Of a stretch of DNA of 43,215 nucleotides, positions 1 through 29,395 are shown one piece after another. Position 1 is the first letter of the stretch. The number at the start of each line of letters is the position of its first letter. The translations under genes were made by a program, and so were the position numbers. Origin of the DNA: a virus. The stretch lies in the UHGV virus genome UHGV-0324072; one strand, 5' to 3'. Under the pieces are notes generated by a model, which made no database searches, had not been told where the DNA came from, and was given only the letters and a program-made list of their open reading frames with translations.

Positions 1-612
1 ACCGAGAGCGTAAAGCATAAGCTGCTTGTTTTCTTTCGCTTCGACGCGATGCCGTCCTGTTTTAAGGTCGCCGATAATGAGCATCGCGGAGTTACTTTCA
101 CCTGTAAAGCCTTCTATAACCGCCACTAAGTCGGCTGTCCCGAATGTCTCTAAATCATCCTCCTTACCTTCTTCACTCTCAGCAGGTACTTTGTAGCCCG
201 GATGCAATACCTCAGTAAGATTGACACGCATTTCCAGCTTGGCGTAAGTCGCTACATCGATAATCGCTTTGCAGTAGTCGGTGTACTTGCGAACCTGTTC
301 AATCATGTCAGCCGTAATCAGTACCGCGCCTTTCATAGGGCTGATTAACGCCTTAATCTGGCCTTTTCCTTCGTCCAGTACATAAGCGCCGACTTCACGT
401 TCTAATGGCAACGCAGTGCCTTTGATGTACTGGTTAAGGTGTATCTCGGCTATGGTGTGCATTGCCGTGCCTAATATCGCAGCTTTACCGGACGTGTCAG
501 GAATATCCTTTTCACAGGCCAGTGATGCGGCGCAGGTTAACCACTTTTTAGCACCTGACGGTGACAGTAAGGCGTGTACGTCGTTATTGCCGCCGCGTTC
601 TTTTAGAATCAT
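1..612 (-). CDS. DUF2800-family PD-(D/E)xK (Cas4/RecB-like) nuclease, N-terminal part; ORF runs off window start and continues in frame at 42547..43215
   Basis: ATG at 612 (RBS GGAGAG upstream); translation MILKERGGNNDVHALLSPSGAKKWLTCAASLACE...; no stop before position 1; family call from motif memory. Confidence 0.6.
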   Translation of the reverse strand, partial: MILKERGGNNDVHALLSPSGAKKWLTCAASLACEKDIPDTSGKAAILGTAMHTIAEIHLNQYIKGTALPLEREVGAYVLDEGKGQIKALISPMKGAVLITADMIEQVRKYTDYCKAIIDVATYAKLEMRVNLTEVLHPGYKVPAESEEGKEDDLETFGTADLVAVIEGFTGESNSAMLIIGDLKTGRHRVEAKENKQLMLYALG

Positions 613-2126: not shown

Positions 2127-4361
2127 CTATTCCAAATCCTCCTCTGTCACCACCAGCATCTCATTTGGTTCGTATAGTGTCTTCGGCCTTAATCTATCCC
2201 CTATTCTTTCGGGTATACGATATGTTCTCGGTACTACTTCGCCGTTAGCATCGCAACCAAGCATTAGTTCTCCATCTTTCAACATTTTATCAAGATGGGT
2301 GTTAGTCACAGAGAAGTCACCGGAACGAGCCACTATCTGCTGCTGAGTAAAACCGCGACCTGTGTCATCTGACTGTTGCAGGTCTTCCAGTGCCGAAAGT
2401 ATTGACTCCTTCCTTACTTCATCCCTGCCGCGTTTAACTTCTTCCTTTACTTTTTGCTTACCTTCTTTCGTCAACCCTTCTTCCCGCTCTTTCTCCTCGT
2501 CAGTTTTGAACGGCTCGAAACCCCACGGCATCAACACAAGCGCCTTGTGTGGTTCAGGAAGGTCCAGGTTTACGATTGTGCCGTATTCTTCTGTGCCCCC
2601 CAGGAACTCAACCGCACGGTACTCTTTCGGCGGCGGAGCTTCGCGGAACTGCACAGACTCCAGCACCATGCCAACCGTTTTCTGTTGAGGACCGTGCTTA
2701 AATTTCGAGTGGTATACGTTTATTTGACGGTCGGTTGCACGTTCGATTGTCAGTTCCACGTCAACACCCGCATACAGCGCCCCACTGCCGCGTGCTTTCT
2801 TTCCGCCCTTCTGCGTATGGTGGACAACGCCTACTGCGGCTTTAGTTGCATCGCGTACTTCTTTCAGAATGGCGATAACTTTACCCATGCCGATTGCTGT
2901 TGATGAACTGTTCTCGTCGAACTTATCAATCGTCAGTGCCAGGGTCTGGTTAAGGGTGTCGAACGCAACCATGCCAATTGGCTCGTCGCCAGCAGTTTCG
3001 CGCATTAACTTAATCAGGCTTTTAAGTTTGCCGACTTCGCCCATATCGATGACGTGTACATAATCTTTACCTTCCCCGCCATATTTAGCCGCTAGTGCAT
3101 CAATACGGGTGCGTGTAGCTGCGCCACCCTCACCATCAATATAGAAATGGTGGCAACGCTGGGTATCCGCCCCCGCAAACCTGTACCCGGCGGCGCTGAG
3201 GTACATCATCCCCAGCGTATAGAACGATTTGTACGTGCCAGATTCCCCGACGATATCCCAGATACAATCCGACGGCATGTACCCCTCAACGACGAAATCA
3301 GCCTTTACCGGCTCCGGTAACTCGTCCCCCTCTGAGTCCTCCTCTGAGTCCTCGTCGTCTTCCAGGTCGTCGAGGCTGCAAGTTACTGGGTCCTCGTTCT
3401 CTGTGCGGTGTAGTTCTTCAATCTCTTCTTCCGGTAAATCAGGCAGAGCCGCACGAATGCTGTTAATGCTGATAGGTTGCTTGTCTACGTTAAGCTCGTC
3501 TGGCAGGCCGCACATACGCAGGGCCAAATGCTGTCGGCGGTTAAGCTCGGTGCAAGCGCCGTTGTTTGTATGCTGGCAGACAAAGCGCACTTCTTTACCG
3601 TCGAGCATTATGCTGGTGGAGCCCTTGCCTGTATGCAGATGTTCGTTAGGGCATGGCACTTCGTACCCGCGCCCGGAAGATAAAGCGTCAAGGCCAAGCT
3701 CGGCTTCGCAGAAGTGTGCTATATCCGCGTTAAGCCCATGCTCATCAGCGGCAAGTGTTTTAGCCTCACGCTTACGCAACCCCATCTCTTCGGCTTTCTT
3801 GATGTACCGCTCGGCACGGATAACACGCCCTTCTGTAACCGTTATCTTCGACTCTTTGTGCGGCAGGTAGATAAGGCGGTTGCCATCTTCCGTGCAGTGG
3901 TCGCGCAACGCTTCGTCTATTTCTAACTCTGCACAAATAGCACGTTGCACCATCCACGCGTCGTTAGAGTTAAACGGCGTGCGAGCTGGAACCAGAACGC
4001 GGAAAGCGTAATCTCCGTTTTTACACACATGCTGATGCGATGCCGTTGTATGCAGAATATTGAAGAACGGTGCGTTCTTGAATTTGCGGGTAAGGTCGCG
4101 GTACTGAGTACGGTTGAGATGGTCAAAATCGAACTTAACCACACTGTCTTCCAGAATAGCGTTCTTACGGCGACCGCCAACAGGCGCAATAGCTTTCTGT
4201 TTAATCTTGGCCGCGTCGTACTCTTCCTTAGTCCATGACGGGTCCACGGATAAACGCTTCGATGTATCGCAGACATACTCCACAAACTGCTCGAGCGGCA
4301 TCTCACGCGCTACAGGGTTTTTATCGAATGTGTTACGCAGCGTTGCAAAAACAATATTCAT
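2127..4361 (-). CDS. DNA primase/helicase fusion (N-terminal primase-polymerase-like region, C-terminal RecA-fold replicative helicase)
   Basis: 744-aa ORF; Walker A-like GESGTYKSF, RecA/DnaB-like helicase segment; Cys/His-rich zinc-binding-like central region; C-terminus VVTEEDLE. Confidence 0.7.
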   Translation of the reverse strand: MNIVFATLRNTFDKNPVAREMPLEQFVEYVCDTSKRLSVDPSWTKEEYDAAKIKQKAIAPVGGRRKNAILEDSVVKFDFDHLNRTQYRDLTRKFKNAPFFNILHTTASHQHVCKNGDYAFRVLVPARTPFNSNDAWMVQRAICAELEIDEALRDHCTEDGNRLIYLPHKESKITVTEGRVIRAERYIKKAEEMGLRKREAKTLAADEHGLNADIAHFCEAELGLDALSSGRGYEVPCPNEHLHTGKGSTSIMLDGKEVRFVCQHTNNGACTELNRRQHLALRMCGLPDELNVDKQPISINSIRAALPDLPEEEIEELHRTENEDPVTCSLDDLEDDEDSEEDSEGDELPEPVKADFVVEGYMPSDCIWDIVGESGTYKSFYTLGMMYLSAAGYRFAGADTQRCHHFYIDGEGGAATRTRIDALAAKYGGEGKDYVHVIDMGEVGKLKSLIKLMRETAGDEPIGMVAFDTLNQTLALTIDKFDENSSSTAIGMGKVIAILKEVRDATKAAVGVVHHTQKGGKKARGSGALYAGVDVELTIERATDRQINVYHSKFKHGPQQKTVGMVLESVQFREAPPPKEYRAVEFLGGTEEYGTIVNLDLPEPHKALVLMPWGFEPFKTDEEKEREEGLTKEGKQKVKEEVKRGRDEVRKESILSALEDLQQSDDTGRGFTQQQIVARSGDFSVTNTHLDKMLKDGELMLGCDANGEVVPRTYRIPERIGDRLRPKTLYEPNEMLVVTEEDLE
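2130..2147. repeat. 18-bp exact repeat TTCCAAATCCTCCTCTGT (second copy 42550..42567), encoding C-terminal TEEDLE of two replication proteins
   Basis: identical nucleotide strings at both gene 3' ends. Confidence 0.8.
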
Positions 4362-22787: not shown

Positions 22788-23200
22788 TGGGCTACTTTGA
22801 GGACTTAACCAAAGCGTTTGATGTGCCGCTGGTGGCCTTCGGAACCACCAACGGCATCAAAGTCGCGCTTGAAAACATCGACGCGCCGACGTCAACCGAT
22901 ACGCCGTATCTTGCAAGTTACATGTTACTGGCGGATACCGAGCAGGCGGATTTGTTCTTCACGGAACAACGCTCTGGTATTTATCAGGTCGACATTAACT
23001 ACGCATCGGCGAAAGGTAGCGCGGAAATCAATAAAATGGCAGACTTACTTAACACGGCGTTTAAAGCAGGTAAGTCATTTTCACGTAACGACATCTGCGC
23101 CGAGGTTCAATCGGTTAGCCTGGGGCCGCTGATTGTAGAAAACGGATGGGCCAAACGGCCATTGTCAATTAACTTTATAGCATTCACCAAGAGGCTGTGA
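22787..23200 (+). CDS. putative tail completion protein (137 aa)
   Basis: position. Confidence 0.35.
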   Translation: MGYFEDLTKAFDVPLVAFGTTNGIKVALENIDAPTSTDTPYLASYMLLADTEQADLFFTEQRSGIYQVDINYASAKGSAEINKMADLLNTAFKAGKSFSRNDICAEVQSVSLGPLIVENGWAKRPLSINFIAFTKRL

Positions 23201-23202
23201 AT

Positions 23203-24369
23203 ATGGCTACAACTCCTTTTAAGGGCGCGAATACCGCGCAATTCTATGTGGCGGAAGTGACCCCGGGTGTAACACCGACTAACCCGGTCTGGTCACCATT
23301 ACGTAACACGGGCGGTGTTCCTGCCATTACCCGTGACACACTGACCTCCAACGAACTCGACGGCAGCCGTGAAACTACATCCATCCGCACCGGTAACAAA
23401 CAGGTTAGCGGTGAATACGCAATTGAGCTTAGCTCTAAAAGCCAGGATGACTGGTTGGCAGGTGCTTTAGGCTCTACGTGGCGATCCGGTGTTTCTCTGC
23501 CAGGACTATCGATCACCGTCGCACCCGCGGGCAAGACGTTCACACGCGCTACCGGCAGTTTTATCACTGACGGAGTTGGGGTAGGCGACCTGATTGCGTT
23601 TACCGACTTAACAGGCGATAACGCAAAACCATTTATTGTTACCGCAGTAACGGCTACCGTTGTTACTGGTGCAGGCATCCAACACACCCTGACCACCGAG
23701 ACAAAAACTAGTAAGGCTAAAACTGGCGACACGCTGGAAACCGGTAACACATGTAAGACGTTCTCTATTCTCACCTGGTACAAAGGACAGTGCGGCGGGA
23801 CTTACGCATACACACTAACCAAAGGTGTGGAAGTTTCCGGTTTCACCGTTGAGCAGGCCGTTAACGCGATGGTTACAGGTAGCTTCCCGTTCATCGGGCG
23901 CAGCCAGGAGATTCTTACTACGCCGCCGTCTGGTTCCAACTTCTCCTCTGTCACGTTTGGTGATGAGCCATTCTCCTCGGTTGACGTTTCTGTGTTTGAC
24001 GGCTATACGCCGTTGCGTTGCGACAGCCTGACCATCACCAACGACAACAGCGCATCCGCGCAGTTCGAACTCGGCAACACTAACGTAGCGTTTGTAGAAC
24101 GTAACCGCGCGGCTAACACCTTCTCCATCTCCGGCAAGCTGTATGACATGGCGATGATTCAGAAGTTTATCAACGAGCAGCAGGTAGAGATTAACTCTAT
24201 TCTGGCGGGGGTAAACGGGGCTATGTCTTTCAGTTTGAAACGTGCGGAGCTTACGGCAGTTACCCCAGAGATTGGCGGACCTGAGTCAATCACTCAGTCC
24301 ATTGAAGGCCAGGCTACTGGCAACCAGTACCAGTCGTCTATTGTTATTCAGCGTATCACCTACGCATAA
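23203..24369 (+). CDS. major tail protein (tail tube)
   Basis: ATG 23203 (RBS AGAGG); about 390 aa, Thr/Gly-rich; followed by a strong terminator; called by position. Confidence 0.55.
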   Translation: MATTPFKGANTAQFYVAEVTPGVTPTNPVWSPLRNTGGVPAITRDTLTSNELDGSRETTSIRTGNKQVSGEYAIELSSKSQDDWLAGALGSTWRSGVSLPGLSITVAPAGKTFTRATGSFITDGVGVGDLIAFTDLTGDNAKPFIVTAVTATVVTGAGIQHTLTTETKTSKAKTGDTLETGNTCKTFSILTWYKGQCGGTYAYTLTKGVEVSGFTVEQAVNAMVTGSFPFIGRSQEILTTPPSGSNFSSVTFGDEPFSSVDVSVFDGYTPLRCDSLTITNDNSASAQFELGNTNVAFVERNRAANTFSISGKLYDMAMIQKFINEQQVEINSILAGVNGAMSFSLKRAELTAVTPEIGGPESITQSIEGQATGNQYQSSIVIQRITYA

Positions 24370-24373
24370 AACT

Positions 24374-24398
24374 AAGGCCCCGAAAGGGGCCTTTTTTA
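24374..24398. terminator. bidirectional terminator AAGGCCCC-gaaa-GGGGCCTT plus T-run
   Basis: perfect 8-bp stem followed by TTTTTATT. Confidence 0.65.
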
Positions 24399-24629
24399 TT
24401 ACTCATCAATGTTACTCCTGTACTCCCGTAACTTTTCCAGACTTTCAATTGCTTCCGCTAAGTCGGTTCCGGTGTCCTTGTGTCCACGTAAACCCATGCA
24501 CAATAGCTTCTTCAATGCGTGCTGTAACGCCGGGTCGCGGATGTCGAAAGCGCGGAGCACATCATAAACGTCTACTGTCATAGTGCTGCCGTGAGTATTT
24601 GTCATTGTGCGGTTGTATTTTGAAGTCAT
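24399..24629 (-). CDS. small protein (76 aa), possibly DUF3310-like; third gene of reverse cassette
   Basis: ATG 24629 overlaps stop of upstream gene (ATGA); VYDVLRAF...QHALKKLL motif recalled from DUF3310. Confidence 0.4.
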   Translation of the reverse strand: MTSKYNRTMTNTHGSTMTVDVYDVLRAFDIRDPALQHALKKLLCMGLRGHKDTGTDLAEAIESLEKLREYRSNIDE

Positions 24630-25756
24630 CCCAGCATCTCCGGTGAAATAGTTAAACGTGCGACCTCGCCATATTCGGCGCTATAAGTAATTACGTTTGC
24701 GCTACGCCCAGACATCCATCCGCCGCGCGAGGCGTAGGCGTCTTTCGCCGCTAAGGTGCGGTGTTGCTCAACAATCATGTTACGGCTTTCTACAATCTTC
24801 TGGTGGTGCAGGTGGCCTACGTGGGCGTAGCTGTAAACACTCTCGCCGAACGCTTTACGGAACTTGGCAATCATAACCGGTTCGATAGCGTAGAATCGTG
24901 CTTTATGCCCGTGATGGAAGAACAGCGTCGTTTTGCCGTGTTGCACCATCTTGTAAACATCCGGCGACGTATCAACAATCACTCGGCTGTCGTTTGAGTA
25001 TAAAACCGTGAACATTTCGGCAAGCCATACGGAGCCAACAGGGTCGTGGTTACCTTGAACGATTAAAAGTTTTACTGTGTGATGCTTAACCAGCGCCATA
25101 TCAACAACACGGCGGACCATACGAATCATGTAACGTACCAGTTTCTGATAGCGAGTATCCGCATCTAATACATGGCGCGACTCGGGGGTAACGGCATCAA
25201 GACTATCGAAGTGTGCGAAGTCCCCAAGCAGGTTAATAACTCCTGTTCCTGCATCCGGTGCTTTCTGAAACGCCGCGTCGAACCACCGAGAGAACAGGTC
25301 TTCTGCAATCTTCATGTCCCAGTCGTCGCCGCTCTCATCGGCCCATGCCAGCATACCGAGATGGAAATCAGATACAGTGTAAAGATTGAGTAGCTTGTCG
25401 TCACGTTTGGCGCGCGCCGCTTTAACAGGCGCAACGGGCGTAATCTCTGACTTCATGCCCTCTATTACGGCTTTCATCAATTCAACCTGACGTTCGGCGT
25501 CGGTATCAGTCTTAACCCATTGCAACTTAGTGTTGCCGAACTCGTCCACAAGTGACGACGTTCCTTTAATCTTGTAGCCGTCTGGCACAAGGTGGCTAAC
25601 GTCGCGCCCGTGGCCCACGCCTTTCTTAGCCAGCTTCGCTTTACGGATACGAATTACGCGGTCTGAGATGCCGTATTTACGGGCGATATCTACATTCTTC
25701 ATACCGGCGTTCAATTCTTCCTGCAACTGTTCGTCGGTTATTTTCTTCCGGGCCAT
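24626..25756 (-). CDS. N-terminal HTH fused to calcineurin-like (Mre11/SbcD-type) metallophosphoesterase
   Basis: phosphoesterase motifs in order: SDFHLG, LGDFAHFD, QGNHD, FFHHGHK, GHLHH; N-terminal KNVDIARKYGISDRVIRIR HTH-like segment; RBS GAGGA. Confidence 0.6.
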   Translation of the reverse strand: MARKKITDEQLQEELNAGMKNVDIARKYGISDRVIRIRKAKLAKKGVGHGRDVSHLVPDGYKIKGTSSLVDEFGNTKLQWVKTDTDAERQVELMKAVIEGMKSEITPVAPVKAARAKRDDKLLNLYTVSDFHLGMLAWADESGDDWDMKIAEDLFSRWFDAAFQKAPDAGTGVINLLGDFAHFDSLDAVTPESRHVLDADTRYQKLVRYMIRMVRRVVDMALVKHHTVKLLIVQGNHDPVGSVWLAEMFTVLYSNDSRVIVDTSPDVYKMVQHGKTTLFFHHGHKARFYAIEPVMIAKFRKAFGESVYSYAHVGHLHHQKIVESRNMIVEQHRTLAAKDAYASRGGWMSGRSANVITYSAEYGEVARLTISPEMLG

Positions 25757-25820
25757 GCTTATTCCTCGTGCTTAGGATTTGTCCTATTTAACCACAGTGG
25801 ATTCCTTTAAATAAAGGCAA

Positions 25821-26147
25821 CTATTTACTTTCTGCGCCTATCGCCCACCCTGTCATTACCATTTGCAGACGGGTGGCTGTCAGTAGGCTATAGAAAGCAT
25901 CTCCGTTTTTCTCTACCGAACGTATCACTGTGTAGGTTACGGCCTGCGGGGGTAGGTCCGATTTACCAACCTCTACAGCGGCCTCACACTCGCGAACCGT
26001 AGAGTCCTTAAATGCCTTTACGATAGTAGGGTCAGCTTTCTCAAGCACACCAGAAGTCATAAGAACAGATTCAGTAAATACCTGTTCGCACGGGGACCCA
26101 AAAGTAGCAAAAGGCATAAACCCCAGAGCTAATACTAATTTACGCAT
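25821..26147 (-). CDS. secreted/periplasmic protein (108 aa) with N-terminal signal peptide; first gene of reverse cassette
   Basis: MRKLVLALGFMPFATFG signal-like N-terminus, two Cys; RBS GAGGA; promoter at 26176..26204. Confidence 0.5.
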   Translation of the reverse strand: MRKLVLALGFMPFATFGSPCEQVFTESVLMTSGVLEKADPTIVKAFKDSTVRECEAAVEVGKSDLPPQAVTYTVIRSVEKNGDAFYSLLTATRLQMVMTGWAIGAESK

Positions 26148-26175
26148 AATTATTTCCTCAGTAAGTTACAGGTGA

Positions 26176-26204
26176 ATAGTACACTATTATATTGGGGTGT
26201 GCAA
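26176..26204 (-). promoter_or_regulatory. promoter TTGCAC-N17-TACTATTCA (minus strand) driving reverse cassette
   Basis: rc of 26176..26204; near-identical to 17053..17081. Confidence 0.5.
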
Positions 26205-26271
26205 GTAATGTGATAGAATAATTTTGCGCCTAGTGTCGCACACGAAAAGCGGGTGGTTCCCGTCTGGCGCA

Positions 26272-26298
26272 TTAACCTTAACCCGTAACCTCTTAACC
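26272..26298 (+). repeat. four closely spaced (T)TAACC direct repeats in leader of tail chaperone gene
   Basis: TTAACC TTAACC cg TAACC tc TTAACC. Confidence 0.6.
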
Positions 26299-26311: not shown

Positions 26312-26728
26312 ATGAAACTTTCTGATTTTTATTTTGCCGACCGCCACGCCGCCGGTACTAAAATGCCTATCCTTCTGCCCAGTGGTAAAGATTCCGGTGA
26401 ATGGTTGCAGGTCATCGGCCCCGATTGTGACGCTGGTGTTCGTGCGGGCCGTGCCTACACAACGGCAATTCGACGCCTTACGGAAGAACTTGCGCCATTA
26501 GATAAAGAGTGCGAGGCGCTGAATAACTGGGCGCGCTATAATGATGAGAAGGGCTGGCGGGTGATGGACCTGAACAAGCAGCTTGCCGTGGAAATCGTCA
26601 CCGGTTGGTCATTCGACGAACCATTCAGCAAAGAGGCGCTTGCTAACCTGTTAGACCAGTACAGTGGGTTGGCAGAGGCCGTAGTTAAGCATCACACCGA
26701 TAGCCGTGAGAAACTCTCGGAAAAGTAA
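26312..26728 (+). CDS. tail assembly chaperone (lambda gpG-like)
   Basis: 138-aa ORF directly upstream of tape measure gene; RBS AAAGGA. Confidence 0.5.
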   Translation: MKLSDFYFADRHAAGTKMPILLPSGKDSGEWLQVIGPDCDAGVRAGRAYTTAIRRLTEELAPLDKECEALNNWARYNDEKGWRVMDLNKQLAVEIVTGWSFDEPFSKEALANLLDQYSGLAEAVVKHHTDSREKLSEK

Positions 26729-27090
26729 AAGCGCTGTATGAATTTGCGCAATGGTGCTTTGTCGACCGCCACAAACGTAAGCAATTCGACGACATCGCGG
26801 CGGGCCACCAGGCGGCTTTGATTGCAATGGGCGTGATTAAAGAACCGCAGATGAAAGAAGCGACGGGGCCGGAATGCCCCGTTTCTCTTATCGACGTGTT
26901 CGAGAAATACCGTGCCATTAAATTCCTACAGCGCGAAACAGATGATACTATCGTTATAATCCCGCGCGATGCGCTCAAATGGCAAGATTTGGTAGCGTTT
27001 CGTTATGTCGCCGGTTACGGCATAAGTTTGTTCGAAGCCGAGGTTATCATGGGCTTAGACGGAATATTTGAGGGCAGAGAAGATGGCTGA
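26710..27090 (+). CDS. -1 frame extension of chaperone (candidate gpGT-like frameshift product)
   Basis: -1 frame opens at 26710 and runs to 27090; GGAAAAG slip-like heptamer (26719..26725) directly before the G stop codon; T-frame stop overlaps tape measure start. Confidence 0.4.
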   Translation, partial: ETLGKVKALYEFAQWCFVDRHKRKQFDDIAAGHQAALIAMGVIKEPQMKEATGPECPVSLIDVFEKYRAIKFLQRETDDTIVIIPRDALKWQDLVAFRYVAGYGISLFEAEVIMGLDGIFEGREDG

Positions 27091-29395
27091 TACGGCTTCC
27101 CTAATTGCCAGAGTAAAAACAGAAGGCGCTGATGTAGCCGCTAAACAGCTTGACGCTATGGCGGCATCCGCAGACCGTGCGGACACATCCGTAAACAAAC
27201 TAACGCCGGATGTTAATAAAGTAAACTCCGCTACGTCTAAAGCGGCTTCTGACGGTTTCGCTAAATTCCGTAACGCCGCCGGGCAGGTAGGCTTCCAGGT
27301 GCAGGACATGGTCGTCCAGTTGCAGTCCGGCACGTCTGCATTCGTAGCAATCGGGCAACAAGGCTCTCAGCTTGCGGGTGCTTTCGGCCCTGGTGGCGCG
27401 GTGCTTGGGGCCGTAATTGCTCTTGCGTCAGCAATCGGTGGTGTCCTGTATAAATCGTTAACCGAAGCAGAAGGCAGTTCAAAAGACCTCGAAGCCGCGC
27501 AGAAACAGTTAAAAGATACTTTCCAGCAAACGGCATCTGGCTCTCTCGAGCTGACAGACGGCCTTATCCAGCTTACCCAAATCAGCAGAGAGGCGGCAGA
27601 GACTCAGCTTGCTCTGGCTAAGGCCAACGCGGACCTTATCGCGCAGCAAACAGCTAAAGCCGTTCGTGAGGACGCAGAATCGTGGGAAACATGGAAAGCA
27701 TCCACGGCATCGGCGATTAGCCAGTACGATGCACTGACCTCTAAGGGTGCTGATGTAGGTGACACGTTAGAAAAACTCGGTGGTACTTACGAGGGTAACA
27801 TCGTAGGCGTCAACATGCTGGCGCAGAATATCGCGGAGCTTAGCAGTAAGTTCGGAGTTAACCGTGACCAGGCGCTGGAGATGATAGCGGCGCAGAGTGC
27901 GTTTAACAAAGAGCCAACCGCCGAGAATGCCCGTCGCATCGCCGATGTGTTTACCGACTGGCTCGGTAACACAAAACAGTTGAACCCGGAACTTATCCGC
28001 CTGACGGACAACGCCAACAAGAACGCCACGGCACTGGAGAACGCGGAGAAGTCAGCAAACGCGGCGGCAGAGGCCCAAAAGAATCTTGGTCGCAACGTCA
28101 ACTCAACCACGCAGAGATTCCAGGAACAGAACGAAGCTATCGTCAAAAACCAGCAAATCGCCATCTTAAGCGACCGTGAGCGTATCCGGGCGCAAGCTGA
28201 ACTTGATAAACAGGCGTTCGCTAAACGTGAAGCCGTCACCAAAGAACAGATAGCCGCGTATAATGCGGCCCGCGACGCGGAAGCGCAGCAAGACATCGCC
28301 CGCATTGACAAGACCGAGAAAGAGAAGGCCGACCGCGAGGCTAAATCGAACGAGGAACGTCTGGCGGCACAAGCCAAACGCGAAGAAACAGCGGCACAAC
28401 GTCAGAAAAAAGCGGCGGAAGATTTCCTGGCTACTGTCGACCGCACAACCGGAGACGAAATTTCACGTATCACAGCGGCAGAAGAACAGAAACTGGCGAA
28501 ACTTGAAGAGTTCAACCGCGCCGGAACGATAAGCCAGCAGCAGTACGAAAACGCCAAAACTCAAATTATGCTCACCGCCGAGCAGGCCAGACAGGAAGAA
28601 CTGGATAAGAAAAGAAAAGAGCAGCAGGAAAAGCAGCAGAAAGGCGACGACTTCATGGCCCAGATTATAGGTCAGAACGCCGCTGAGCTTGAGCTTCTCG
28701 ACATCCAGGAACAGCAGAAACTGTCGGTAGCAGATAAGTACCGCGAGCAGGGTTTGATTAGTGAGAAGCAGTACCAGGCGGCGCTTAACGCCATCAATGA
28801 GCAGTATGCTACGAAGCGTGCCGACGCAACGGCAACGGCCTTCGGTAACATGGCTTCAAACATCGGTTCGGCTTTGGGCGAGGCTTCTGGCGCGTATAAG
28901 GCATTCGCTATCGTACAGGCCACTATCGCCACGTACACCGCGGCTATCGAGGCGTACAAGTCCACAGCGGCTATCCCTGTAGTTGGTCCGTTCCTGGCTC
29001 CTGTAGCTGCCGCCGCTGCCGTTGGGGCGGGTATGGCGCAGATTTCCGCTATCAGGTCCGCACGTGAACAGGGCGGACAGTTATCAGCCGGGCAGGCTTC
29101 CACCATCGCTGAACGTGGTAAACCAGAAGTTATCATGCCCGCTGGTGCGTCACGTGTACGCACCGCACAGCAGATGAAAGAGATTATGGGACAAAACGGG
29201 TCTTCTTCCGGCCCATCTAATGTTACCATTGTAAATAATACATCGAGTCAGATTGGCAACGTATCCACCGAGCAGGATGATGAAGGCCGTCTGCGTATCA
29301 TCATAGAAGAGCAAGTTGCTGCATCTTTGCAGAACAGCAACAGTAAGATTAGCAAGGCCCGCAAGGCCACAAGAAACGCGCCGGGGTTTAAATAA
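27083..29395 (+). CDS. tail tape measure protein
   Basis: 770 aa, Ala/Gln/Glu-rich helical; ATG 27083; longest tail-module ORF. Confidence 0.8.
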   Translation: MADTASLIARVKTEGADVAAKQLDAMAASADRADTSVNKLTPDVNKVNSATSKAASDGFAKFRNAAGQVGFQVQDMVVQLQSGTSAFVAIGQQGSQLAGAFGPGGAVLGAVIALASAIGGVLYKSLTEAEGSSKDLEAAQKQLKDTFQQTASGSLELTDGLIQLTQISREAAETQLALAKANADLIAQQTAKAVREDAESWETWKASTASAISQYDALTSKGADVGDTLEKLGGTYEGNIVGVNMLAQNIAELSSKFGVNRDQALEMIAAQSAFNKEPTAENARRIADVFTDWLGNTKQLNPELIRLTDNANKNATALENAEKSANAAAEAQKNLGRNVNSTTQRFQEQNEAIVKNQQIAILSDRERIRAQAELDKQAFAKREAVTKEQIAAYNAARDAEAQQDIARIDKTEKEKADREAKSNEERLAAQAKREETAAQRQKKAAEDFLATVDRTTGDEISRITAAEEQKLAKLEEFNRAGTISQQQYENAKTQIMLTAEQARQEELDKKRKEQQEKQQKGDDFMAQIIGQNAAELELLDIQEQQKLSVADKYREQGLISEKQYQAALNAINEQYATKRADATATAFGNMASNIGSALGEASGAYKAFAIVQATIATYTAAIEAYKSTAAIPVVGPFLAPVAAAAAVGAGMAQISAIRSAREQGGQLSAGQASTIAERGKPEVIMPAGASRVRTAQQMKEIMGQNGSSSGPSNVTIVNNTSSQIGNVSTEQDDEGRLRIIIEEQVAASLQNSNSKISKARKATRNAPGFK

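Follow-up and report, generated by a model that had tools for sequence, protein, structure and literature searches.

UHGV virus genome UHGV-0324072, a stretch of 43,215 nucleotides referred to below as the window, carries a minus-strand cassette of three genes within its tail operon, the middle one of which encodes a 376-amino-acid (aa) protein that joins an N-terminal helix-turn-helix (HTH) to a calcineurin-like metallophosphoesterase (MPP) domain. The locus is one ordinary member of a known HTH-MPP family and not a new three-gene system, and across phages the HTH-MPP gene is a conserved, horizontally mobile single-gene module that usually resides at late-operon junctions. We tentatively read its product, at somewhat less than even chances, as an HTH-tethered, metal-dependent DNA phosphodiesterase or nuclease that would take part in phage DNA metabolism and pass its products to a coupled partner. 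A preliminary description of the window had presented the cassette as a gene combination without a recognised counterpart; the middle gene belongs to phrog_704, 'DNA repair exonuclease', which is annotated in hundreds of genomes, the family and its location having been recorded there before under imprecise names.

The 376-aa protein (minus strand, 24626-25756) matched phrog_704 in the PHROG database with E = 9.6e-162. Its scores against the Pfam models PF00149 (Metallophos, 21.9 vs 27 bits) and PF12850 (Metallophos_2, 17.3 vs 21.5 bits) were below the gathering threshold, a few homologs carry a precomputed PF12850 match, and sequence comparison places the protein in a divergent subfamily of the calcineurin-like MPP superfamily. 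The preliminary description had recognised an HTH and five Mre11/SbcD-like phosphoesterase motifs, and profile alignment upheld all five (D130-x-H132, G178-D179-x-x-H182, G235-N236-H237-D238, H281-H282-G283-H284, and G314-H315-L-H317-H318). The first two large homolog searches returned sequences that were 85-99% identical only, and diversity was obtained with a profile built from non-enterobacterial members. The motifs were invariant or nearly so in an alignment of 10 sequences spanning 28-73% identity and in a second alignment of 128 sequences at about 40% identity, suggesting that catalysis is under selection. The AlphaFold2 (AF2) model of the protein (predicted local distance difference test, pLDDT, 80; predicted template modelling score, pTM, 0.72) consists of a three-helix HTH at aa 8-43 (helices 8-16, 21-28, and 32-43; minus strand, 25628-25735), a long beta-hairpin at 61-85, a helix at 87-104, and an MPP core at 119-370 (minus strand, 24647-25402) that holds the five metal-binding and catalytic motifs and is predicted to adopt the alpha/beta-sandwich of an MPP fold, with the conserved loops 137-146 and 194-200 poorly ordered. 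The nearest folds to the predicted one are those of Mre11/SbcD and PolD-DP1, which have also been reported as neighbours of Bxb1 gp47, and an Rv0805-type cyclic nucleotide (cNMP) phosphodiesterase ranks second in the Foldseek comparison. The HTH gave weak matches to GerE/LuxR, FixJ, and EsrB, and it alone was matched when PDB sequences were searched with the full-length protein; homologs have precomputed HTH_1, HTH_50, or HTH_28 domains. Nearly all homologs retain the HTH, the Campylobacter phage homolog being without it.

The likeness to Mre11/SbcD extends to the motifs and to a near fold. The AF2 model contains no C-terminal capping domain next to the MPP core, and the annotation of the 97%-identical Bas71 genome includes no SbcC/Rad50-like gene, in agreement with the preliminary description, which had noted the absence of an SbcC-like partner; the large open reading frames (ORFs) of the window encode a polymerase, an SNF2-type helicase, and an AAA_25 helicase-primase. 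For want of the capping domain and of an annotated SbcC/Rad50 gene we do not assign the protein to the Mre11/SbcD family, although it may work in the same manner. An ssDNA endonuclease termed MPE in Pseudomonas putida belongs to a repair operon with an Lhr-Core helicase and a ligase. One homolog of the window protein (P0085) has been named 'Nuclease MPE...' by a third party, and P. putida MPE is not among the listed fold or sequence matches of the window protein.

A tblastn search with the 376-aa protein identified 2,042 phage records, 1,961 of which match over the full length. These span Guernseyvirinae, Dhillonvirus, Drexlerviridae (T1-like phages and Webervirus), Eracentumvirus podoviruses, Vibrio and Rhodobacter siphophages, cyanophage Pam1, and Campylobacter Fletchervirus, in which the HTH is lacking; the gene is also found in Cupriavidus and Paraburkholderia genome records, and the Cupriavidus gilardii copy that was examined is carried by a prophage. 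We inspected 16 distinct genomic contexts. All six Guernseyvirinae genomes inspected carry the gene in the same tail-operon slot as the window, and its GC content at third codon positions (GC3, 0.57) matches the genome, indicating that within Guernseyvirinae the gene is not a recent or variable moron. Elsewhere its position changes: in T1-like phages it closes the replication operon, immediately ahead of the holin gene; in several phages it is the last late gene, after the lysis genes, and in two of these, both temperate contigs, it adjoins an integrase; and in other contexts it adjoins a lysozyme gene and an HNH gene, is found between terminase and portal or between portal and scaffold, sits within another tail module on the same strand as the tail genes, or, in a prophage, lies just upstream of the terminase. 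In Erwinia phage S2 it belongs to a series of DNA-metabolism genes that encode 5'-3' exonuclease, endonuclease VII, MPP, HAD protein, P-loop protein, and DNA ligase. From the T1-like, S2, and Campylobacter contexts the gene could have been described in general as part of a core replication module; this description was dropped, as seven additional contigs, all from distant phages, place it within or bordering late, lysis, packaging, or tail regions. Across contexts the gene looks like neither a fixed replication gene nor a lineage-specific moron.

Several further features recur around the gene. A holin, endolysin, or spanin gene is encoded within a few genes of it in about half of the 16 contexts (for example L003, L009, L004, L007, L006, L008, L021, and L027), which may simply reflect the gathering of accessory genes at the ends of late operons. 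HNH (homing) endonuclease genes adjoin it in unrelated phages, namely Pam1, Vibrio 93E33-1, SE131, and the Kagunavirus phages 590B, NTEC3, and AV104 (three of these loci are L007 5201-5917, L006 5241-5750, and L011 5171-5671), suggesting that the gene is a recurrent homing target or travels with HNH genes. In a P22-like metagenomic contig (L025 4760-12804), an accessory island between the large terminase and portal genes encodes the HTH-MPP together with a dGTP_diPhyd_N protein, a gp49_66 protein, and a protein resembling Tad2, an anti-Thoeris sponge family.

The window itself derives from a Kagunavirus-type (Guernseyvirinae) siphophage: the 2-kb region around the cassette is 97% identical to Escherichia phage LotteLoewe_Bas71 and matched 310 phage records by megablast. 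Its structural genes occupy the plus strand from about 7 kb to 36 kb and its replication genes the minus strand. ORF calls confirmed the order and strands of the cassette genes as first described, with three minus-strand ORFs interrupting the plus-strand operon after the major tail gene (23197-24369) and ahead of the gene for the tail chaperone (26312-26728). The first encodes a predicted periplasmic protein of 108 aa (25821-26147), the second the HTH-MPP, and the third a protein of 76 aa (24399-24629). A good Shine-Dalgarno sequence (GAGGA) precedes both the 108-aa and the 376-aa genes, and the stop codon of the MPP gene overlaps the start codon of the 76-aa gene by 4 nt (ATGA, minus strand, 24626-24629, GGGATGACT), from which translational coupling is predicted. 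Phage K1H has the same 4-nt overlap at the MPP stop codon, though its downstream gene differs.

The signals that bound the cassette were then compared among related phages. At its downstream end, a GC-rich hairpin (AAGGCCCCGAAAGGGGCCTT, 24374-24393) with an 8 bp stem of which 6 are GC pairs and a loop of 4 nt scored as a terminator on both strands, and would be common to the tail tube gene on the former and the cassette on the latter of the plus and minus strands; a strong T-run accompanies it on the plus strand and a weaker one on the minus (AGTTTTAT). In K1H (~3075-3095 of locus L002) the stem is identical and the tetraloop is changed (GAAA vs TTTG), consistent with selection on structure rather than on sequence and with the strong bidirectional terminator proposed earlier. 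At the upstream end, a sigma-70-type promoter had been placed at 26176-26204 on the minus strand (-35 TTGCAC at 26204-26199, -10 TACTAT at 26181-26176). This TTGCAC-N17-TACTAT site agrees with the consensus at 7/12 positions only, a consensus scan favoured the overlapping ATCACA-N17-TATAAT, and the scan found no excess of promoter-like sites (6 against 4.6 expected from shuffled sequences). When five Kagunavirus and Jerseyvirus intergenic regions were aligned, the hexamers TTGCrC and TAyTAT and their 17-nt spacing were found to be kept across K1H, Esher4, SGPC, and SE131, even though the first gene differs in SE131, and the TATAAT favoured by the scan was not conserved. Despite its weak match to the consensus, the promoter is therefore retained on the strength of its conservation. 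With its own conserved promoter, a terminator hairpin, and an orientation opposite to the surrounding genes, all as read from the DNA, the cassette appears to be transcribed on its own, against the direction of the tail operon and from a natural break in it.

The intergenic region on the far side of the promoter has features of its own. A block of ~70 nt between the cassette promoter and the chaperone start codon (26215-26295) is almost invariant across Kagunavirus and Jerseyvirus, with the pattern …GCGCCAGrCGGGAACCACCCGCTTTTC…GCGAC…TAG…GC…, and holds short GC stem-loops, one of which (26242..26225) scores as terminator-like on the minus strand. The block could serve the chaperone and tape-measure genes as a late promoter or 5'-untranslated-region element, or it could insulate against antisense transcription. 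In Bas71 an annotated 30-aa minus-strand ORF (L001 13772-13864, about 26187-26279 of the window) overlaps the conserved promoter and this block, and is probably a spurious gene call.

The promoter-proximal gene has a history distinct from that of the HTH-MPP. The 108-aa protein was found in 99 records, exclusively from Guernseyvirinae, and its gene has a GC3 of 0.44, compared with 0.56-0.65 for the MPP gene, the 76-aa gene, and other genes of the phage. A conserved signal-peptide-like N-terminus (aa 1-17), with an n-region, an h-region, and the small-residue site TFG|S, which is a plausible signal peptidase I site, and without a lipobox, together with two invariant cysteines (Cys20 and Cys54), predicts localisation to the envelope and supports the earlier designation as a signal-peptide protein; the C-terminus is also conserved in the alignment. 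No match to the protein was found in Pfam, NCBIfam, PADLOC, or PDB, the only assignment being phrog_14165, of unknown function, and these searches likewise linked it to none of the known Sie, Imm, Cor, or Llp families. In the Jersey-like phage SE131 the same promoter-proximal slot is occupied by a 59-aa protein with two transmembrane segments that belongs to phrog_1039, 'immunity to superinfection'. The 108-aa gene looks like a separate, more recently acquired, moron-like gene, and its product would most plausibly be an envelope-level exclusion or host-modulation factor.

The slot downstream of the HTH-MPP is likewise exchangeable. DNA alignment with K1H showed nearly identical flanks between which the 76-aa gene is cleanly replaced by two genes. 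The first encodes a HAD phosphatase (Pfam HAD_PNKP, E = 7e-20, with PDB matches to T4 Pnk 1ltq and Pnkp1 4xrp) and the second a P-loop protein of phrog_139, 'dNMP kinase' (deoxynucleoside monophosphate kinase; E = 3e-46). The same MPP, HAD, and P-loop trio was found in Webervirus KP1801, Eracentumvirus S2, and Kagunavirus Esher4, and the swaps at this slot involve HAD and dNMP-kinase-like genes with or without HNH or Ant. Among the contexts inspected, an ATP-dependent DNA ligase is encoded near the MPP in S2 and in Campylobacter phage F370 only, upstream of the MPP in the latter. The 76-aa ORF is not a truncated remnant of the K1H ATP-binding protein: BLASTP detected no similarity between the two, and the DNA alignment indicated a clean replacement. 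Although replaced in some relatives, the 76-aa gene has native GC3 (0.56).

The 76-aa protein belongs to a family found in 774 phage records and 3,585 representative clusters, whose members are free-standing or form the N- or C-terminal domain of 70-330-aa proteins without significant Pfam domains. Its AF2 model, based on a multiple sequence alignment (pLDDT 92), comprises a beta-hairpin and three helices. Outside its own family, some members of which are fusion proteins bearing the names 'DNA ligase' and 'Phosphodiesterase', a Foldseek search of BFVD matched the model to DUF3310, SaV-like, and gp1.7-like 'nucleotide kinase' proteins (TM 0.6-0.7, probability about 1.0, E = 1e-2 to 1e-1); the T7 gp1.7 nucleotide kinase has DUF3310 as its C-terminal domain, at residues 122-184. 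The sequence layout is similar to that of DUF3310 and SaV-like proteins (h-x-h-K-K/Y-h-h ... G-x-K/R ... D-L-x-x-A), from which the 76-aa protein differs in its extra N-terminal beta-hairpin and its own large family. Membership in DUF3310 by sequence was rejected, as the Pfam DUF3310 HMM (hidden Markov model; PF11753) did not match the protein at E <= 1 and hhalign against T7 gp1.7 was negative at 0.4% probability. A bona fide Pfam DUF3310 gene is present four genes upstream of the HTH-MPP gene in the Cupriavidus prophage (L020 6503-6721), in a Nin-like region, a proximity that echoes the pairing of MPP and DUF3310-like genes in the window.

What the HTH-MPP acts on, when it is expressed, and what it does for the phage we infer from these observations as follows. 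The locus appears to be a self-contained minus-strand unit, running from the promoter (26204-26176) to the terminator (24393-24374) and co-oriented with the replication genes, and is a composite of three independently evolving genes in which the HTH-MPP is the fixed element. The HTH-MPP itself would be an active binuclear phosphodiesterase of the Mn2+/Fe2+ type that acts on DNA as a stand-alone nuclease resembling Mre11 or DP1, with its own HTH and beta-hairpin supplying the DNA binding that Rad50/SbcC or a capping domain gives elsewhere. It may process replication or recombination ends or break down host DNA. The coupled downstream slot would then hold an exchangeable nucleotide-phosphate partner that handles the nuclease products, either nucleotides or phosphorylated ends, this partner being a DUF3310-like protein in the window and a Pnk-type HAD 3'-phosphatase with a dNMP-kinase-like P-loop protein in sibling phages; the 108-aa gene would be a periplasmic newcomer in a slot that is filled elsewhere by a superinfection-immunity membrane protein. 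This proposal draws on the intact, conserved active site fused to an HTH, on the nucleases that are closest to the MPP in structure, and on the recurrent gene neighbours of the MPP, which act on nucleic acids or nucleotides (HAD-PNKP and phrog_139 proteins, ligase, 5'-3' exonuclease, endonuclease VII, and a dGTP-diphosphohydrolase-like protein), and both versions of the downstream slot carry parts that handle nucleotides or end phosphates, which offers circumstantial support for a functional link with the upstream nuclease or phosphodiesterase. A related precedent is A10ZJ24 Gp48, a homolog of Bxb1 gp47, which digests DNA in vitro and the DNA of the host in vivo and which the phage requires to replicate in Mycobacterium tuberculosis (PMC12287305).

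A number of observations weigh against a nuclease of DNA metabolism with a coupled partner. Many distant phages carry the MPP in late, lysis, or packaging regions and not with replication genes, once beside a Tad2-like gene. Beyond Guernseyvirinae the 76-aa family is unlinked to the MPP and occurs among small early genes, so the coupling seen here may be positional rather than functional, and the negative sequence tests limit the relationship of the 76-aa protein with DUF3310 to the level of fold. Profile comparison of the MPP with Bxb1 gp47 and T5 A1 aligned motif III only, at 6-10% probability, the phage polymerase has a 3'-5' exonuclease domain of its own, and our search of the literature found no biochemical or genetic data for any HTH-MPP family member. 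Published essentiality work (phage transposon sequencing, CiPGr) does not cover this phage group, and the BASEL paper does not discuss the cassette.

The HTH-MPP was also compared with individual nucleases. The stand-alone MPEs of cluster A mycobacteriophages (Bxb1 gp47, L5 gp54, and A10ZJ24 Gp48) are about 255 aa long and have neither the N-terminal HTH nor the beta-hairpin module; Bxb1 gp47 is a replication-linked phage exonuclease that is encoded among replication genes and moonlights as a recombination directionality factor. Since motif III alone aligned between Bxb1 gp47 and the window MPP (6% probability), the two were assigned to different subfamilies. For T5 A1, a host-DNA degradation factor in which Pfam finds nothing, hhalign covered 20 columns around motif III at 10% probability. 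The archaeal PolD small subunit DP1 is a 3'-5' proofreading exonuclease; the window has no PolD large subunit, and its polymerase belongs to family A (PolA). Because PolA has its own 3'-5' exonuclease domain, an editing partner is not needed, and the DP1-like role of an editing exonuclease for the phage polymerase is unlikely.

The neighbours of the MPP in sibling phages raise the alternative that it heals nucleic acid ends, as a 2',3'-cyclic phosphodiesterase or 3'-phosphatase of the Clostridium thermocellum Pnkp lambda-phosphatase type that, with a 5'-kinase, a HAD phosphatase, and a ligase, would repair the RNA or DNA termini left by host nucleases, for instance anticodon nucleases or nicking defences. 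MPP domains with these two activities are established for Pnkp and lambda phosphatase (PMC2190708, PMC3675462). A Pnk-type HAD phosphatase and a P-loop kinase-like protein follow the MPP in three unrelated lineages, with an ATP-dependent ligase after the MPP in S2 and a ligase before it in F370, an arrangement that resembles T4 Pnk and Pnkp. These partners are absent from the window, however, the kinase-like partner of the siblings is classed as a dNMP kinase, and by fold ranking the window MPP is not lambda-phosphatase-like, leaving end healing as an unlikely account. The same slot pattern invites a more speculative extension of the nuclease reading, in which the HTH-MPP anchors a mobile unit for DNA demolition and nucleotide recapture: an HTH-targeted nuclease would attack host or competitor DNA, coupled to an exchangeable nucleotide-kinase slot (a gp1.7-like DUF3310 protein, or a HAD phosphatase with a dNMP kinase) and, in Guernseyvirinae, to an exchangeable envelope-exclusion gene, together forming a competition island. 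We regard this version as improbable in its entirety, though were it correct, the DUF3310-like protein of 76 aa would serve either as a minimal nucleotide kinase or to regulate the nuclease. Another alternative is that the phosphoesterase hydrolyses a nucleotide immune signal, such as cyclic oligonucleotides or cNMPs, or another small phosphodiester, with the island serving as an anti-defence locus. To our knowledge no MPP-fold anti-signalling enzyme has been described. The occurrence of the MPP as a floating module at late-operon junctions in distant phages, once next to the Tad2-like gene, leaves room for such an accessory or counter-defence role, and its patchy cross-family distribution as a single gene, the high rank of the Rv0805-type enzyme, and the promoter of the cassette are in keeping with it; a conserved DNA-binding HTH would be unexpected in a small-molecule phosphodiesterase, PADLOC, a library of defence rather than anti-defence proteins, returned no match for the cassette, and Kagunaviruses with the MPP gene are still broadly sensitive to the tested restriction-modification systems and variable in their response to Old (PMC11990801). 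We consider counter-defence a quite unlikely explanation.

The preliminary description favoured joint action of all three genes in a single moron-type system that would serve superinfection exclusion, anti-defence, or host modulation. Their common promoter and terminator, tight spacing, and ATGA overlap speak for such a system, as does the envelope-targeted first gene, whose alternative occupant is a known superinfection-immunity family. The phyletic distributions of the three genes are independent, however (99, 2,042, and 774 records for the 108-aa, HTH-MPP, and 76-aa proteins, respectively), each flank has been exchanged separately (the 108-aa gene for the 59-aa protein, and the 76-aa gene for the HAD and dNMP-kinase-like genes), the MPP is solitary in most other phage groups, and the 76-aa gene is found elsewhere among unrelated small early genes, so that a single three-gene system now seems a poor prospect. 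The moron designation survives in part: it suits the autonomous unit and the 108-aa gene, with its restricted distribution, atypical composition, and envelope targeting, and does not suit an MPP gene that is fixed in Guernseyvirinae with native GC3. The accompanying statement that the cassette is not involved in virion assembly stands, as no evidence for such a role emerged; a virion component was rejected because the Pam1 homolog is absent from the virion proteins detected by mass spectrometry. Least probable is that the protein is primarily a DNA-binding transcription factor, for instance a late-gene activator, with a phosphoesterase domain that senses or processes a ligand. The LuxR/GerE- or LysR-type similarity of its N-terminus, a weak match to phrog_836, 'late transcriptional activator' (E = 7e-4), and a Q-like position just upstream of lysis or terminase genes in T1-like phages and the Cupriavidus prophage would accord with a regulator. 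Against it, every catalytic residue is invariant, the Campylobacter homolog without an HTH retains the MPP, and the MPP is the last gene of the late operon in several phages.

At least 2,000 sequenced phage genomes from at least eight unrelated groups carry a member of the HTH-MPP family, as do prophages, and the carriers are found in widely used collections, among them BASEL phages Bas70-76, T1-like phages, and candidates for Klebsiella therapy from Webervirus. For the annotation of the family as 'DNA repair exonuclease' we found no experimental basis. To know whether the MPP is a replication-linked nuclease, degrades host DNA, heals ends, or counters defence as a phosphodiesterase would correct a large block of phage annotation, and bears on the assessment of the safety and efficacy of therapeutic phages. 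The pattern of slot exchange (DUF3310-like vs HAD and dNMP-kinase-like proteins downstream; periplasmic vs Sie-type membrane protein upstream) is a useful but modest observation, and the clean exchange of the downstream slot provides a testable handle on the function of DUF3310-like domains.

Two minor observations were made in passing. A second strong GC hairpin (GACGGGGCCGGAATGCCCCGTT, 26862-26883), terminator-like on both strands, sits between the chaperone ORF (26312-26728) and the tape-measure ORF (27068-29395) of the window; in K1H the chaperone is annotated as a joined (frameshifted) product of two pieces. In T7, gp1.6 (L019 307-567) matches the Pfam family BC10, 'Bladder cancer-related protein BC10', with E = 8e-24, an odd name for a phage protein.

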